A DNA stretch of 64,000 nt from Pyrinomonadaceae bacterium. Lineage in GTDB: Bacteria; Acidobacteriota; Blastocatellia; Pyrinomonadales; Pyrinomonadaceae. The notes beneath the pieces are model-generated. The model made no database searches and had not been told where the DNA came from. It saw only the letters and a list, made by a program, of their open reading frames with translations. The stretch lies in contig DASRCS010000026.1 in NCBI GenBank assembly GCA_035652995.1, positions 580 to 64,579 on the forward strand, given 5' to 3'. Below, piece by piece: positions 4,584 to 12,573 of the stretch (position 1 is its first letter; every line of letters begins with the position of its first letter). A program made the translations under genes and the position numbers.

Positions 4584-4922
4584 ATGGCAGATAACATGGA
4601 AGGACAGGGCGGCAGCGGCTCTGGCGGCGGCGGCACTTCGGGCGGCTCGTCGGGTGGTTCTTCTGGCGGCGGCGGAGGCACGGGCGGAGGCGGCAGCACC
4701 GGCGGCGGTGGCGGCAGCTCGTCCGGCGGTTCGAGCGGTGGTTCGAGCGGCGGAAGCTCCGGCGGTGGCGGCGGCACTTCGGGCGGCGGATCGAGCAGCG
4801 GCGGCGGCGGCGGTTCCAGCAGCGGCGGCTCTTCGGGCGGCGGCGGCGGAAGCTCTTCGGGCGGTTCGTCTGGAGGCTCGTCGGGTGGTTCGAGCGGCGG
4901 CAGCTCAGGCGGCGGAAGATAG
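4584..4922 (+). CDS. Gly/Ser-only low-complexity small protein (112 aa), function unknown
   Basis: ATG at 4584 preceded by GGAGGAGAG. The ORF is followed by a stem-loop plus T-run at 4977..5019. The protein after MADNMEGQ is almost entirely G, S and T. Confidence 0.5.
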   Translation: MADNMEGQGGSGSGGGGTSGGSSGGSSGGGGGTGGGGSTGGGGGSSSGGSSGGSSGGSSGGGGGTSGGGSSSGGGGGSSSGGSSGGGGGSSSGGSSGGSSGGSSGGSSGGGR

Positions 4923-5086: not shown

Positions 5087-6487
5087 CTACTTCGTCTGAG
5101 CGTCGAGCCGGCGCAGGTTCCCCTCGCCGCTGATCTTGCGCCGCTCGACGCGGGCGACGCGCTCGACCTCGGCGAAGGCGCGCATGAAGTTGCCGCCCAA
5201 GATTTTCAGAATGTCCTGCTCGCTGTAGCCGCGCCGCAGAAGCTCGTATGTGATGCTCGGCAAATCCTCTACGCCGTGCATCCCGGCGGGCAGCGTGACG
5301 CCTCCGTCGAAGTCCGAGCCGAGTCCGACGTGGTCAATGCCGGCGACCTTCGCGATGTGGTCAATGTGGTCAACGAGCACCGAGACTGTCGTCTCCGGCA
5401 GAGGGTTCGCGTCTTCGAGCTTCTGCAACTCTTCCGCCAGACGCTTCGGGTCGTTCTTGTACTGCGCGCTCAAAGCGTCGCTCTGCGCCTTCAGCTTCGC
5501 GTCGCGCTCGACTGAAGCCTGACGAACCTTCTCGTCGAGGAAGACCGAGTAGAAGTTGACCATCACGACGCCGCCGTTTGCCCCGATGCGCTTGAGCAGG
5601 TCGTCGGGGATGTTCCGCTTGTGGTTCGAGATCGCGCGCGCCGAAGAGTGCGACGCGATGACCGGAGCCTTCGACACGTCGAGCGCGTCCGACATCGTCT
5701 TATCGGAGACGTGCGAGATGTCAACGAACATCCCCAGGCGGTTCATCTCGCGCACGACATCCTTGCCGAAGTCGGTCAGCCCGTTATGACGCGCCTCGTC
5801 GCAGCAGGCGTCGGCCCACTCGTTCGTGTTGTTGTGCGTCAAGGTCATGTAGCGCACGCCGAGCCGGTAGAACTCGCGCAGCGCCGAAAGCGAATTCTCA
5901 ATCGCGTGCCCGCCCTCGATGCCCATCAGCACGCCGACCTTCCCCTCGCGCTTCGCGCGCCGTATGTCTGCGGTCGAGGTCGCGAGCATCAGGTCGTTCG
6001 GGTACTTCTCGACCATCCTGTACGTCACGTCAATCAGGTCGAGCGCGCGCGCAGCCGAGCCGCCCTCGACGACGTAGTGCGTGCTCACCCAGTCGGGCGT
6101 CGCGTACTGCCGGTCAACGTAGATCGAGAAGAACTCGCCCGTCAGCCCCGACTGCTTCAGGCGCTGCAAGTCCGTGTGATACTTCCCCGCCGAAGGCGTG
6201 CCGAGGTCGTAATTCTCGTCAACCATGACCGACGGGATGTCGTTGTGCCCGTCAACGATGATCGCCTTCCGGTGAATCGCCAGAGCCTTCTGCCACAGCC
6301 GCTCGTCCCGCTGCGGCGTGGCCGAGGTCTGCGGCGTCGGAGTCGCCGAGCTTCGCGCGCCGGACGAAGCTTGCGCGCCCGACTTCGACGCGGACGCGGC
6401 CTTGCCCGAAGTGAATGAGAGCGACGAAGCGGCGAGCGCGCAAGCGACGACGCCGACAAACAAAGCGACGCGAAGAGTCCTGTTCAT
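5087..6487 (-). CDS. membrane dipeptidase (peptidase family M19), secreted or lipid-anchored
   Basis: IIVDGHNDIP, HVSD and GLGSDFDG motifs of renal-dipeptidase-like enzymes. N-terminal signal peptide and Ser/Ala/Thr-rich linker. Confidence 0.9.
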   Translation of the reverse strand: MNRTLRVALFVGVVACALAASSLSFTSGKAASASKSGAQASSGARSSATPTPQTSATPQRDERLWQKALAIHRKAIIVDGHNDIPSVMVDENYDLGTPSAGKYHTDLQRLKQSGLTGEFFSIYVDRQYATPDWVSTHYVVEGGSAARALDLIDVTYRMVEKYPNDLMLATSTADIRRAKREGKVGVLMGIEGGHAIENSLSALREFYRLGVRYMTLTHNNTNEWADACCDEARHNGLTDFGKDVVREMNRLGMFVDISHVSDKTMSDALDVSKAPVIASHSSARAISNHKRNIPDDLLKRIGANGGVVMVNFYSVFLDEKVRQASVERDAKLKAQSDALSAQYKNDPKRLAEELQKLEDANPLPETTVSVLVDHIDHIAKVAGIDHVGLGSDFDGGVTLPAGMHGVEDLPSITYELLRRGYSEQDILKILGGNFMRAFAEVERVARVERRKISGEGNLRRLDAQTK

Positions 6488-6676: not shown

Positions 6677-7054
6677 TTACTTCGACTCCCCTCCGTTCCC
6701 CTTCTTACGTTTCGAGGGGCTTTTATACTCCAACTTCTTCTTCCTCCCCACTGACGCCACCTGATCCGAGTTCGAGCCGAACTGCGCGTCCACCTGCACC
6801 TTCGCGTCGAGCATCGCGTTGTGGAACGCCCACGCCGCCGCGATCTCCGCGTCACGCTTGGCGTCGGCCTCGGCCTGTGCCTGTGTCGCCTCGCGCTGCG
6901 CTTCGTCCAGACGGTCGCGCAGGGCCTTTATGTTCGTCACCGTATATGCCTGATTCGCGGGCGCGTAGTTCTCAATCCCCTGCAAAGCGTCGAACGCGTC
7001 GCGGTCAGACGCAAGTTGCGCGGATGGTAATCTCCTCGTCTGATTCTTCGCCAT
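6677..7054 (-). CDS. hypothetical protein (125 aa, Ala/Gln/Glu-rich helical centre, Lys-rich tail)
   Basis: ORF 6677..7099 trimmed to the ATG at 7054, preceded by AGGAAA. I recognise no family. Confidence 0.5.
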   Translation of the reverse strand: MAKNQTRRLPSAQLASDRDAFDALQGIENYAPANQAYTVTNIKALRDRLDEAQREATQAQAEADAKRDAEIAAAWAFHNAMLDAKVQVDAQFGSNSDQVASVGRKKKLEYKSPSKRKKGNGGESK

Positions 7055-7221
7055 AAGTTTTTCCTTTCGGCATGAGGTTAACGGTTTGACGAGTCTCAAT
7101 GAGGCTCGCCGTAGGCAGTGCGCGCGAGTATGGCGCGGATTCTACGCCCCCCGCGCCGCCGCCGCAAGACTTTTCTACGCCGCCGCCCCCTGCCGCGACG
7201 CGACACGCCCCGCAATCAAGC

Positions 7222-7430
7222 AAACACGCCCTGCTACGACGTAATCACGCCCTGCTACGAAGAAATCGCACGCTGCTACGAAGTAATCACGCGATACTAC
7301 GCCCCAACAATCCGTGATTACGTCGCAACACGCGCTGCAATAAGCCAATCACGCCCTGCTACAAAGCAATTCCGCCCTGCAATAACATATTTCCGCGCTG
7401 CTACGACGCAATTTCGCCCCGCAACGACCC
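7222..7430. repeat. about 10-11 tandem degenerate copies of a 21-bp unit (consensus near AATCACGCCCTGCTACGAMGY)
   Basis: Read directly: aaacacgccctgctacgacgt / aatcacgccctgctacgaaga / aatcgcacgctgctacgaagt / aatcacgcgatactacgcccc / aacaatccgtgattacgtcgc / aacacgcgctgcaataagcc / aatcacgccctgctacaaagc / aattccgccctgcaataacat / atttccgcgctgctacgacgc / aatttcgccccgcaacgaccc. Confidence 0.8.
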
Positions 7431-7512
7431 GGAAACGCCTCTCTCCACCCCATTTTCCCCTCAACCACTCACAACCGCGCCCGCGCCCCCGCAATCATCT
7501 CCCCATACCCCG

Positions 7513-10299
7513 CTACGCTCCCCCGCGCCACTGAGCAAGCGTCGCACGTACTACATTGGCATTTGGCGACTCAATCTGCTCGAAAATCTCAAGCGCCGCT
7601 TCGGCGTGCGCGATAGCGTGTGCGCGGTTGCCAAGTTCGTCGAGCGCCAAACTAGTGTTGAAGAGGTCAATCCCCTCGCCGCGTCGGTCGCCGATTTCGC
7701 GATCAATGATTAATGCCTGCTTATAGAACTCGACGGCGCGGCGCGTCTCGCCCAACGCCGCGTAGGCGCTGCCAAGATTGCCCAGCGCATTCCCCTCGCC
7801 GCGCCGGTCGCCTATCTCTCGCGCGATTGCAAGGTCTTGCTCATAGAACTCGACGGCTCGCCGCGGCTCGCCCAAGCTTCTGTAAGCGACGCCGAGATTG
7901 CCCAGTATTGCCCCCTCGCTGCGGCGGTCGCCGATCTCACGCATGATAGCTAGTGACTGCTCGTGGAATTCGACGGCTCGCCGCGGCTCGCCTAAATTTT
8001 TGTAAGCAACGCCAAGATTGCCCAGCGCATTCCCTTCGCCGCGCCGGTCGCCTATCTCTCGAACGATGACTAATTGTTGCTCGTAGAACTCGACGGCGCG
8101 GCGCGTCTCGCCCAAATCCGCGTAGGCTACGCCAAGATTGCCCAGCGCATTCCCTTCGCCGTGGCGGTCGCCTATCTCTCGTGCGATTGCGAGAAGTTGC
8201 TCGTGGAACTCGACGGCGCGGCGCGTCTCGCCCAACGCCGCGTAGGCTACGCCAAGATTGCCTAAATGTCTTCCCTCAGAGGCACGGTCTTTAAGTTGAC
8301 GCGCAGCCGCCAACGCAGCTTCGAGCCAGACGATGCGCTCGTCGCGTTGATGTTGGCGCAAGTCAAGCACGAACACACCGGCGTCAGGATAAGCATTACA
8401 CAACCGCGCGGCTGTCTCGTCCCCGCCGGATTGCCCGCACGCCCACTTCTGCCCGACCTCTATGTTCTGTCGCTCGGCGTCAAAGAGCGAAAGCCCGCTC
8501 CTGATTGCATCGCCGCCCCGCAAATAGAACTCGTCACACTCTCCGAGCACTCTCAGGTAATGCCAAGCGTGACGCATCAGGCTCTCGCTTCGCTCCGCCT
8601 CGCTCTGGCGAGAGTCCGCGAACAGGCGCGCGAGGTCGTGCAGGCGATAGCGATGCGTCTCTGTGTTGTAGAGTACGAGGCTGCGGCGGACGAGTTCGCT
8701 GAGATGTTTGTGCCCCTCGTCTTCACATATCGCTGCTTCCGCTCCGGCGTCGAACGTCGCGGGGAAGACCGAGAGACGGCGGAAGACGCGCGCGGCGTCC
8801 GTCGAAAGACGCTCGTAGCTCAGGTTGAAGGAGGCTTCGACGCCGATGTCAACGCCCTCAGTCCCGATATTCTCAAGGCGCGTGCGCTCGTCGCCGAGTT
8901 GCGCGGCGTACTCTTCGGGGTCGAGGTCAACCGTCACGTCGAGCAGGCTTCCCGCCGCGCGTATGGCGAGCGGAAGATAGCCGCACAGGTAACAAACACG
9001 ATCCGCAACATTGTTGGGGACACGCGCGCAGATTCCCGTTAAAAGTTCGCGCGCTTCCGTCGCGTTCAGTTGGTCGAGCGTGACGCGCGTCTTCATGCCC
9101 GGCAGCACAATCGCGTTGCGCGAAGTGATGAGCAAGGCCGAACCCGCCGGCGGCAGAAGCGGGCGCACCTGCGCGCTGTCCGAGGCGTTGTCGAGCAGTA
9201 CAAGAGCGCGCTTGCCTTCGAGGACGCTCGTGTAGAGTTGTTTTAACGATTCGATGTCGTCGGGCAGGCGCTGCTCGACGCCGACGAAGGCGCGTATGCA
9301 CGAGGCGAGCGCGTCCGCGGGGTCGCGCGGCGCGTCGCTCGTCCCGCGCATGTCCAGAACGAGTTGCGCGTCGGGGTATGCGTCGCGCAGGCGTTCGGCG
9401 ACGTAGAAGGAAAGCTCTGTCTTGCCGATGCCGCCCATGCCGCTGATGCCCGTGATGGCGGCGCTCCCGCCGCGGCGCAGCGTGGTGAGCAGTTCGGCAA
9501 TCTCCTTCTCGCGCCCGACGAAGTCACCGACGGGTGCGCGGAGTTGATGCAGGGTCGGAATGACGGGGCGGGGCGCTTCCTGGACAATCTTGTTGCCGCG
9601 CACCACGTCTCCCGCCGCATTTTCCACGACGACGTTATCGTCGCCCGTCACGGCGAGGTTGTCGTCTCCGCTGACGGCGACCGAGCGCGCGCCCGTAGCG
9701 ATGTTGAATCCCGCGCGGCGCAAACTCGACAGCAGGTTTTGATCGAGGCCGCTGAAATCTCTGATGCCGTCGAGCAACTGTTGAGCCTCGGCGCGCTGCA
9801 CCTCGCCGCGCGCCGCGCGTTCCAGCAAGGGCGTCAGAAAGTCTTTGAAGATTAGATTGTGAAGGTCGGCGGCAACGTCGGCGGCGAGTTTGCCGGGGCT
9901 TGTGAAGTCGGGGCCGATGATGTGGTTCGTGCGAAGTTCGTGTTTGAGCGTGTCGAGCTTTGCCGTCTGCGCCGCGTCGGTTTCGCGCAGGTCGTCGGGG
10001 ATTGTAGCGTCCGACTTGAAGTAGATGAGGCACGGCAGGCCGCGCTCGCGCGCGCGGCGGTATTCGTCTTCGGTTATGCCTGAGCCGTAGCGGGCGGCGA
10101 AGATGCCGACGTAGATGCTGCTCCGGTCAACGTCGTCGAGCGATGCGCGGCGCGTCGTCTCGTCGCGGCTGCCGAAGTATTCCATGCCGACGAACTGCGT
10201 CTCCTTCATCCGCATGACGGCTGCGCGGACGGCGTCGCGCTCAGGCTCAAGGTCAAGCCAGGTCGAACTGACGAAGACGGGGAGGATGGGCATTGCCAT
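7513..10299 (-). CDS. STAND/NLR-like NTPase: DUF4062-like N-terminal domain, NB-ARC P-loop, TPR repeats
   Basis: Start ATG at 10299 is preceded by GAGGAG. N-terminus PVFVSSTWLDLEPERDAV...IYVGIFAARYGS...LPCLIYF. Walker A GISGMGGIGKTELS and Walker B ALVLLDNA. At least 5 C-terminal 40-aa TPR units (GNLGVAY..LGE.RRAVEF.EQ.L.I.REIGDRR). Confidence 0.85.
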   Translation of the reverse strand: MAMPILPVFVSSTWLDLEPERDAVRAAVMRMKETQFVGMEYFGSRDETTRRASLDDVDRSSIYVGIFAARYGSGITEDEYRRARERGLPCLIYFKSDATIPDDLRETDAAQTAKLDTLKHELRTNHIIGPDFTSPGKLAADVAADLHNLIFKDFLTPLLERAARGEVQRAEAQQLLDGIRDFSGLDQNLLSSLRRAGFNIATGARSVAVSGDDNLAVTGDDNVVVENAAGDVVRGNKIVQEAPRPVIPTLHQLRAPVGDFVGREKEIAELLTTLRRGGSAAITGISGMGGIGKTELSFYVAERLRDAYPDAQLVLDMRGTSDAPRDPADALASCIRAFVGVEQRLPDDIESLKQLYTSVLEGKRALVLLDNASDSAQVRPLLPPAGSALLITSRNAIVLPGMKTRVTLDQLNATEARELLTGICARVPNNVADRVCYLCGYLPLAIRAAGSLLDVTVDLDPEEYAAQLGDERTRLENIGTEGVDIGVEASFNLSYERLSTDAARVFRRLSVFPATFDAGAEAAICEDEGHKHLSELVRRSLVLYNTETHRYRLHDLARLFADSRQSEAERSESLMRHAWHYLRVLGECDEFYLRGGDAIRSGLSLFDAERQNIEVGQKWACGQSGGDETAARLCNAYPDAGVFVLDLRQHQRDERIVWLEAALAAARQLKDRASEGRHLGNLGVAYAALGETRRAVEFHEQLLAIAREIGDRHGEGNALGNLGVAYADLGETRRAVEFYEQQLVIVREIGDRRGEGNALGNLGVAYKNLGEPRRAVEFHEQSLAIMREIGDRRSEGAILGNLGVAYRSLGEPRRAVEFYEQDLAIAREIGDRRGEGNALGNLGSAYAALGETRRAVEFYKQALIIDREIGDRRGEGIDLFNTSLALDELGNRAHAIAHAEAALEIFEQIESPNANVVRATLAQWRGGA
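7678..8280. repeat. five tandem, highly similar 120-bp repeats inside the STAND gene (TPR-encoding units)
   Basis: Blocks such as gccaagattgcccagcgcattcccttcgccg and ctcgtagaactcgacggcgcggcgcgtctcgcccaa recur with a 120-nt period. Confidence 0.8.
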
Positions 10300-10611
10300 T
10301 AGCTCGCTCCTCACGCGAAGGTTTTTGTGAGTCCGTGCGCGCCGGGTCGCGTGTCAAGGTTCGGCGGCGGCTGCGGCGGCGTTGAATGTCGCGGGGCAAC
10401 GATACAGTCGCAAGCGCCTGTTGTAAATGGATTCGACGCGCGCCTGGTGCGTGCGCGAGAAAGATTGCGGGCGGCGCGATGCGCTTGCCGCGCGGGGCGG
10501 TTTCTGATACACAAGCAGCCACGCGGTTAATTTCTCAGACGCAGAAGGGCGCACGTGGTCTCCTGCCGCGCGCGTCCGTCCAGTTCTTCGAGTTGAGGTT
10601 TTAAGGCGAAC

Positions 10612-12570
<1,959 letters not shown>

Positions 12571-12573
<3 letters not shown>

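Follow-up and report, generated by a model that had tools for sequence, protein, structure and literature searches.

What is an NLR-type protein doing among the metabolic genes of an acidobacterium? This question is raised by a 64,000-nt stretch of DNA, here called the window, from a metagenome-assembled genome (MAG) of the Pyrinomonadaceae. On its minus strand, at 7513..10299, lies the only NLR-type gene of the window. It codes for a protein of 928 aa in which an N-terminal DUF4062 domain (also named NIR), a linker, an NB-ARC-type nucleotide-binding domain (NOD) and a C-terminal array of tetratricopeptide repeats (TPRs) follow each other. An earlier note, made from the letters alone, had seen in it a candidate immune sensor. 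Comparison with characterised proteins and with homologues makes it moderately likely that the gene product is a single-chain NLR-like STAND receptor with a DUF4062/NIR NADase as its output, in which a ligand would trigger oligomerisation and thereby the depletion of NAD+. An antiviral or anti-mobile-element role is likely to a slightly lesser degree.

Gene and domain architecture

The list of open reading frames (ORFs) gives the minus-strand frame as 7513..10314 when read from a GTG and as 7513..10299 when read from an ATG, with the stop codon at 7513-7515. The ATG form, which begins with MAMPILPVFVSST, is used for numbering throughout, because more than 100 homologues begin in the same way (MxxPILPVFVSST), which supports the start at 10299. 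The product is 100% identical to an NCBI entry named 'MAG TPA: tetratricopeptide repeat protein [Pyrinomonadaceae bacterium]'. Pfam assigns DUF4062 (PF13271) to aa 8-83 (E=1.2e-16, 61.0 bits against a cut-off of 24.7), NB-ARC to aa 264-456 (E=2.1e-7, 30.9 bits against a cut-off of 23.5) and TPR_12 to six stretches of the C-terminal part (E=2e-50); the NTPase region is also assigned AAA_16 and ATPase_2. As all three parts score above the Pfam cut-offs, the division into DUF4062, NB-ARC and TPR that the earlier note had read from the translation can be regarded as practically certain.

The gene and acs diverge from a common intergenic region of 312 bp, in which a weak sigma-70-like promoter match (9 of 12 positions) is found at 10399..10427 on the minus strand. 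The number of such sites in this region is not above the shuffled expectation, and the assignment of this one as promoter of the NLR gene is only a suggestion.

The N-terminal domain as a predicted NADase

The N-terminal DUF4062/NIR domain, a predicted TIR-like NADase effector, covers aa 6-157 (9829..10284, minus strand). A profile built from 24 N-termini of the family matches the solved DUF4062 chain of KpSwz over these residues, that is, over the whole TIR-like domain and beyond the Pfam core (E=1.6e-16), and furthermore the TIR domain of human TEP1 (E=4.3e-6). An AlphaFold2 model of aa 1-220 (pLDDT 87.7, pTM 0.80) shows long, parallel-type strands at residues 6-12, 34-37, 62-67 and 90-95 alternating with helices, a short strand or bridge at residues ~127-132 and, at 135-163, a long helix. 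With this model, the best Foldseek matches of domain size are the plant TIR domains of RPS4/RRS1 (TMt 0.59-0.64) as well as nucleoside 2-deoxyribosyltransferase (NDT) and DNPH1 (TMt up to 0.71), all with modest E-values between 5e-4 and 1e-2. The same mixture of TIR, NDT and DNPH1 matches is given for PsAvs2 in the NIR preprint (bioRxiv 10.64898/2026.09.04.749371). Model and structure search agree with each other, and judged by the model the N-terminal domain has the TIR/NDT-like alpha/beta fold that the earlier note had proposed.

That this fold is equipped for catalysis is indicated by the motif T76-E77-D78-E79-Y80 (10060..10074, minus strand). In the HMMER alignment, GITEDEYRRA of the window protein stands opposite SFTEKAFDYA of KpSwz. 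On a first reading of this alignment E77 appeared to be the catalytic Glu; it was dropped in favour of E79 in view of the E97A chain and of Eva01 E87-Y88. Both cryo-EM structures of KpSwz are of the 15-C E97A construct, and because of this the Ala at position 84 of the chain, which aligns with E79 and not with E77, is taken as the mutated E97; the choice depends on a chain numbering offset of 13 that is itself deduced. The pocket of Eva01 (F11 ... E87-Y88) agrees with F9 and E79-Y80 of the window protein, E79 thus being the equivalent of KpSwz E97 and Eva01 E87. R70, within ARYG, aligns with R976 of TEP1, within SRYG (chain offset 893, checked on R908), a residue whose mutation lowers the activity of TEP1. 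None of the 110 homologues deviates at R70, Y71, G72, T76, E79 or Y80, and 104 of them keep E77. Alignment and conservation together identify E79-Y80 as the predicted catalytic Glu site, and it is fairly likely that the window protein is an active NADase.

To the earlier note the DUF4062 module was a domain lacking any demonstrated activity in this role. This has become outdated. Three 2026 preprints (including bioRxiv 10.64898/2026.09.04.749371) describe DUF4062 as a TIR-like NADase, which converts NAD+ into ADP-ribose (ADPR) and nicotinamide and needs a conserved Glu (KpSwz E97, PsAvs2 E108, Eva01 E87, TEP1 E1008). NAD+ depletion and Glu-dependent defence by abortive infection were reported for Swarozyc, Evangelion, PsAvs2, Vulcan and Vesta, and for KpSwz and PsAvs2 the products were identified as ADPR and nicotinamide. 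Swarozyc is activated by the phage portal; PsAvs2, from Pseudomonas chlororaphis, is apparently activated by the phage terminase, co-expression being toxic (bioRxiv 10.64898/2026.09.04.749371). Among the eukaryotic proteins, NADase activity was shown for TEP1 only, and NWD1, NWD2 and NPHP3 are inactive as NADases. Since activity and defence function of the domain, including its use in an Avs2, are already reported, most of the novelty claimed for the gene is removed.

The NB-ARC switch

The central part, aa 251-571 (8587..9549, minus strand), is an NB-ARC-type STAND NTPase consisting of the NOD and a winged helix, as judged from Pfam, from its match to AfsR chains and from motif conservation. 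The Walker A and Walker B motifs quoted in the earlier note are present: G287MGGIGKT at aa 287-294, with K293 (nt 9418-9441, minus strand), and LVLLD370NA at aa 366-371 (nt 9187-9204, minus strand). They are joined on the same strand by TSR at aa 392-394 (ITSR394), GYLPLA at aa 440-445 and an LHD motif at aa 553-555 with H554 (nt 8635-8643). The NB-ARC set of P-loop, Walker B, RNBS-B, GLPL and MHD-type LHD is therewith complete, and these motifs are 96-100% conserved in the 110 homologues. A NACHT module was not assigned by Pfam, nor was there a bNACHT match in PADLOC.

The closest solved relative of the NOD-TPR part is AfsR of Streptomyces (PDB 8k60, 8jke), which shares its NB-ARC motifs and TPR_12-type repeats with the window protein; aa 251-571 match its cryo-EM chains with E=3.5e-59. 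AfsR, in contrast, carries at its N-terminus a SARP DNA-binding domain and activates transcription, whereas the window protein has the NADase-type domain at this place. No such DNA-binding domain (SARP, composed of an OmpR-type winged helix-turn-helix and BTAD) was found in the Pfam scan of the window protein, and the NCBIfam equivalog model for AfsR (NF053617) reaches 286.8 against a cut-off of 1430, with E=3.3e-85 and over the NOD-TPR part only. Membership among the AfsR-type transcription regulators was rejected on these grounds.

The TPR array

The C-terminal region (7516..8586, minus strand) was delimited by the TPR_12 matches, by structure matches and by its periodicity. It is composed of a helical lead-in at aa 572-670, five consensus-like 40-aa TPR units at aa 671-870 (nt 7690-8289, minus strand) and, on the same strand, a degenerate capping unit at aa 871-910, which together with the tail reaches aa 928 (aa 871-928). 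The units resemble the TPR structures of LGN/GPSM2 and designed consensus TPRs, and at the DNA level they appear as a 120-bp tandem periodicity at 7724..8262.

The earlier note had called these units nearly identical. Their number, five, and their length hold, yet the recent-looking identity does not: within the gene the units are 75-88% identical as protein and 68-84% as DNA, with a synonymous divergence of ~0.44. In the scaffold codons the ratio of nonsynonymous to synonymous differences (pN/pS) is 0.03 at pS 0.44. Because of these two values, recent duplication as well as concerted evolution were rejected; the units are ancient, strongly constrained and held by selection. The 12 variable TPR codons of the gene have a pN/pS of 0.94, which is no independent sign of selection because the sites were picked by their variability.

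In a set of 478 TPR units from 120 homologues, the majority of unit positions have an entropy below 1 bit. Entropy rises above 3 bits at positions 7, 14, 17, 18 and 32 and amounts to 2.4-2.7 bits at positions 3, 4, 8, 22, 34 and 36, variability as a whole being concentrated at 12 positions (3, 4, 7, 8, 14, 17, 18, 22, 29, 32, 34 and 36). We take unit positions 7/8, 14 and 17/18 to be the canonical TPR positions 2/3, 9 and 12/13 of helix A. These canonical positions line the concave, ligand-binding face of a TPR superhelix. The number of units per protein ranges from 2 to 14 among the homologues.

Relation to known systems

In its design the window protein is like PsAvs2 (bioRxiv 10.64898/2026.09.04.749371): both are single-gene systems that open with a NIR domain containing the catalytic Glu, continue with a STAND NTPase and end in TPR-like repeats. 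The depletion of NAD+ to ADPR and abortive infection are experimental results for PsAvs2 and predictions for the window protein. Furthermore, the latter has an NTPase of the NB-ARC/AfsR type, its sensor is a regular array of consensus-like 40-aa TPRs in place of the terminase-binding domain of Avs2, and its host is an acidobacterium and not Pseudomonas chlororaphis. PADLOC v2.0.0 returned for the window protein generic TPR models and one weak, unrelated match to C3a156 (an oxidoreductase). The layout of effector, switch and repeat sensor, which the earlier note had likened to Avs and bNACHT proteins, stands; membership in these families was rejected, given these generic matches and the assignment by Pfam of NB-ARC and not NACHT. 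The window protein is Avs-like in design, not a member of Avs1-5 or bNACHT as modelled in PADLOC v2.

Swarozyc (KpSwz), Evangelion (Eva01), Vulcan and Vesta have a homologous effector, in which the F9 motif, R70 and E79-Y80 recur. They differ in having no NTPase switch; their DUF4062 domain is directly coupled with HEAT repeats, with a partner phosphatase or with an auxiliary domain of small size. The order of N-terminal NIR, STAND NTPase and C-terminal repeats is also that of the eukaryotic proteins TEP1, NWD1, NWD2, NPHP3 and TTC41, which, in contrast, have NACHT modules and mostly WD40 repeats. TTC41 and NPHP3, to judge by their names, carry TPRs.

Linker and relatives lacking the effector

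Between the helical extension of the effector and the NOD lies a variable, Gly/Asp/Asn-rich and beta-prone linker at aa ~205-240 (SVAVSGDDNLAVTGDDNVVVENAAGDVVRGNKIV; 9580..9687, minus strand). It is the least conserved stretch of the protein (column identity 0.18-0.27), with pLDDT below 50 at aa 204-216 of the AlphaFold2 model, and it is very short or missing in ~20 of the 110 homologues. Eight relatives have the chassis and no NIR domain (P0039, P0099, P0106, P0107, P0110, P0111, P0113 and P0116). They begin with a peptide of 19-85 aa, mostly Gly/Asp/Asn-rich like the linker, which directly precedes the conserved entry motif of the NOD.

A comparable situation is described for NLRs with bacterial amyloid signalling sequences (BASS), in which NB-ARC/TPR proteins occur either as 'all-in-one' effector fusions or in forms with a short N-terminal peptide (bioRxiv 10.1101/2020.01.06.895854). 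The family of the window protein resembles them in its NB-ARC and TPR chassis and in the occurrence of both effector-fused and peptide-only forms. It differs in that the adjacent effector with a matching motif was not found at the two loci checked: no partner with a matching C-terminal motif was seen among the neighbours of the effector-less P0116 and P0039, and a profile comparison of the family of the orphan ORF described below with the gene that follows P0116 was likewise negative. An amyloid-signalling pairing of the Gly/Asp/Asn-rich segment was rejected on the result from these two loci. Acidobacteria are not mentioned in the text of the BASS paper (bioRxiv 10.1101/2020.01.06.895854).

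Two longer variants of the architecture were seen, in P0027 and P0092 (= L024:5127-8474) and in P0074 and P0085. One has a module of ~250 aa with a match to PF13749 inserted between NIR and NOD; the other has an extension of ~520 aa N-terminal of the NIR domain, in which P0085 shows a trypsin-like match (PF13365).

Distribution and evolution at one locus

More than 100 full-length homologues with 53-78% identity share the architecture. Nearly all of those with a taxonomic name belong to the Pyrinomonadaceae, the family of the source MAG, within which the protein family is large. In the window the gene is flanked by the M19 dipeptidase gene (5087..6487, minus strand) and by acs (10612..12573, plus strand), both identified by Pfam; these flanks, the orphan ORF and the 21-bp array between them are all real, as the earlier note had described them.

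The locus was surveyed with the dipeptidase as anchor in 80 reference genomes, and 26 species show both acs and dipeptidase. A full NIR-NLR gene lies between the two in five of the 26 (L005, L007, L010, L024 and L032), one has a 260-aa remnant (L013) and the other 20 have none. The earlier note had named universal conservation in a regulatory operon as evidence against its proposal; absence from 20 of 26 species with both flanks speaks against such conservation. Presence is patchy also among close relatives, since L006 does not have the gene despite a dipeptidase that is 84% identical. Metagenomic contigs with close homologues (L002, L003 and L087) hold the acs-dipeptidase position, too. The flanks lie only ~230 bp apart in L051 and L053 and, at the other extreme, over 7 kb apart, and three intervals contain two NLR-type genes (L085:5531-19310, L086:3474-12634 and L089:2355-12511), L085 having in addition fragments of DUF4062 (80 aa) and of TPRs (90 aa) beside acs. 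The interval is thus variable among relatives and reaches from an empty 230-bp gap to two NLR copies.

Individual domains differ in their history. The orthologue at L005:6591-8786 is 85% identical in the NIR domain and only 51% in the NOD, which implies, on sequence grounds, that its NOD-TPR part was replaced by recombination with a paralogue. For L003, identities are 90% in the NIR domain, 53% in the linker, 88% in the NOD and 90-94% in the flanking genes. Taken together, these loci show birth-and-death evolution and mosaic genes at one fixed position of the chromosome.

One paralogue, P0070 (62% identical), stands in a different context. It lies directly downstream of SIR2-APAZ (PADLOC E=1e-171) and short pAgo (E=1e-135) in an island (L088:5754-12865, contig Ga0672937_0000001) that also contains a large integrase, XRE/ImmA-like (M78) genes and ParE; the paralogue itself matches a generic TPR model of PADLOC v2.0.0 and nothing more specific. 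Two NAD+-targeting systems are thus found side by side in L088. In the sample of ~12 contexts, too small for statistics, known defence genes within ~10 genes were seen for P0070 and not in the window or at orthologous loci. For NIR genes a share of 20% near defence genes has been reported, the background being roughly 4%.

Proposed function and alternatives

The preferred reading can be put as a series of steps. At rest the NB-ARC module would hold ADP, a state which the conserved LHD and P-loop motifs fit, and the TPR array would keep the protein monomeric and its N-terminal NIR domain apart from those of other molecules. A ligand would bind to the variable face of the TPR superhelix, the likeliest candidate being a protein from an invading phage or another mobile element, and permit nucleotide exchange and oligomerisation of the NOD. 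This would cluster the NIR domains and open their active sites (R70, E79), and the clustered domains would then hydrolyse NAD+, with growth arrest as the outcome.

Several observations weigh against this reading. The NADase experiments cover homologous domains, and no NB-ARC-type NIR fusion is among them. PADLOC v2.0.0 gives no Avs or bNACHT match, its database dating from 2023 and not covering newer Avs types, and the pN/pS of the variable TPR codons adds no independent evidence of positive selection. The local neighbourhood consists of housekeeping genes (acs, dipeptidase, hemN, cmk and riboflavin genes), and in relatives the interval holds mostly signalling and miscellaneous genes and not known defence systems: PAS-GAF-STAS, histidine kinase, ankyrin, patatin, methyltransferase, DUF72 and one PIN toxin. 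With such contents and surroundings, a classical defence island at the acs-dipeptidase locus is unsupported. Furthermore, most of the sampled family members reside at one inherited chromosomal locus and not on mobile elements, and no relatives were found on the viral contigs of IMG/VR, by which carriage by phages or prophages was rejected.

Part of this would suit a housekeeping or physiological STAND regulator like AfsR, MalT and GutR, with TPRs that sense an endogenous signal and a NIR domain that adjusts NAD+ or nucleotide pools, e.g. in starvation dormancy. The NOD-TPR chassis is nearest to AfsR; the gene lies among metabolic genes, is inherited at one locus in many relatives and often stands beside PAS-GAF-STAS signalling genes; mobile-element hallmarks are absent nearby and there is no tRNA in the first 20 kb of the window. 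We nevertheless consider such a regulator unlikely. Patchy presence down to close relatives such as L006, copy-number variation, fragments and mosaic domain swaps would be unusual for a core regulator, the SARP domain by which AfsR acts is missing and the AfsR model stays far below its cut-off, and every bacterial DUF4062 protein characterised so far is a defence effector.

A second alternative keeps the role in immunity or conflict and changes the chemistry: the NIR domain might not deplete NAD+ in bulk but generate an NAD+-derived signal, hydrolyse other nucleotides (as a CMP/dNMP N-glycosidase of the NDT/DNPH1 type) or act as an adaptor for oligomerisation. The Foldseek matches to NDT and DNPH1 are indeed as good as those to TIR, the Avs2 effector was first annotated as a CMP hydrolase by Gao et al., the authors of the NIR work themselves raise a possible functional diversification, and NWD1, NWD2 and NPHP3 showed no NADase activity. 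NAD+ depletion is, however, what was seen in five out of five bacterial DUF4062 systems tested, in two of them with ADPR and nicotinamide as products, and the active-site residues common to the known NADases are invariant in the homologues. No candidate gene for a downstream receptor is consistently adjacent; the sole frequent neighbour codes for a 125-aa helical protein and is absent at many loci. We consider a divergent chemistry less probable still than the regulatory role.

Finally, a receptor for self/non-self or kin recognition that triggers cell death, with paralogues sensing conspecific allelic proteins as in the HET-type NLRs of fungi, where expansion likewise goes along with consensus-like repeats bearing hypervariable positions, is very improbable: lineage-specific expansion with tandem paralogues, few hypervariable repeat positions and a variable repeat number would fit, and the short beta-prone N-terminal peptides of the effector-less relatives recall amyloid signalling motifs, but neither cell fusion nor mixing of cytoplasm is in evidence for Pyrinomonadaceae, the search beside two effector-less relatives brought up no partner whose C-terminal motif would match, and one paralogue is located in a typical antiviral island.

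The proposed NLR-like receptor with NADase output does not constitute a new category, as the chemistry of the domain was reported in 2026 and so was its occurrence both in Avs2 and, according to one of the preprints, in "other NLR-like proteins". In their main texts the three preprints mention neither NB-ARC fusions nor Acidobacteria specifically. If active, the window protein would extend the NIR/DUF4062 NADase effector to an NB-ARC/AfsR-type chassis and to the Acidobacteria, one of the major phyla of soil, in which hardly any immune system has been characterised. Interest now attaches to the evolutionary pattern of the family at its locus, and to a chassis and a phylum that experiments have so far left aside. 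At a single syntenic site, the gene is found in zero, one or two copies or as fragments, its NODs have been swapped, and its TPR units number 2-14 with ~12 variable positions in each, which offers material for studies of NLR diversification and recognition.

A more far-reaching idea is that the NIR-NB-ARC-TPR genes of the Pyrinomonadaceae form an evolving, germline-encoded receptor repertoire at one fixed locus, shaped by birth-and-death, domain swapping and diversification of the TPR face. It would be a bacterial counterpart of the NLR clusters of plants and fungi, and the closest prokaryotic match in architecture to the eukaryotic NIR-STAND-repeat proteins. We put this forward tentatively, as a minor possibility. 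In such a repertoire, the Gly/Asp/Asn-rich segment might be a hitherto unrecognised element for assembly or signalling that the proteins share with their effector-less paralogues.

Accompanying elements

Downstream of the NLR gene a conserved hypothetical gene of 125 aa, the orphan ORF, is located at 6677..7054 on the minus strand, a position that it often, not always, takes with respect to NLR orthologues. All of its 91 homologues are from Pyrinomonadaceae or other Acidobacteria, and at least 13 of the 91 lie on contigs of the same size as that of an NLR homologue. It is absent at the NLR loci L002, L010, L024 and L032 and present beside the NLR remnant in L013; the two genes, though often neighbours, are separable. 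The AlphaFold2 model shows the product as a helical hairpin that carries a basic tail; neither Pfam, PADLOC and NCBIfam nor the fold search gave a match for it. As a recognisable partner of the NLR protein it was rejected for this reason and for its absence from several NLR loci.

Between the stop codon of the NLR gene and the start of the orphan ORF, hence upstream of the latter, an array of ~10-12 degenerate 21-nt units extends over ~7175..7451 on the minus strand, detected by TRF and a repeat finder. Its core on the minus strand, GTAGCAGGGCGTGATT, has 5 matches against 0.37 expected. The array has no match in Rfam. In L003, L005 and L007 the orthologues of the orphan gene are likewise preceded by arrays with a 21/22-bp period, diverged in sequence, and because of this the array in the window is probably to be assigned to the orphan gene rather than to the NLR gene. 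That it is part of the NLR gene or a known RNA was rejected accordingly. A period of 21 nt corresponds to two helical turns, which suggests a candidate conserved array for protein binding or regulation.

At the closest orthologous locus (L002:5183-5907, 78% identity) a 103-aa gene and a PIN-domain (VapC-like) gene replace the orphan ORF and the array; this pair is probably a toxin-antitoxin system. In the window, the NLR gene and the 21-bp array are bracketed by a 26-nt, 81%-complementary inverted repeat (7139-7164 / 10362-10387), which is GC-rich and (CGG)n-like. A mobile cassette bounded by it was considered and rejected, as the repeats are not conserved in L002, L003 and L007 and probably arose by chance. 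On the other side of the dipeptidase gene, between it and hemN, an ORF of ~112 aa at 4584..4922 (plus strand) codes for a Gly/Ser-rich low-complexity sequence with GGSSGG repeats, and unannotated genes of 113-172 aa occupy the equivalent position in L003, L085, L086, L087 and L089.

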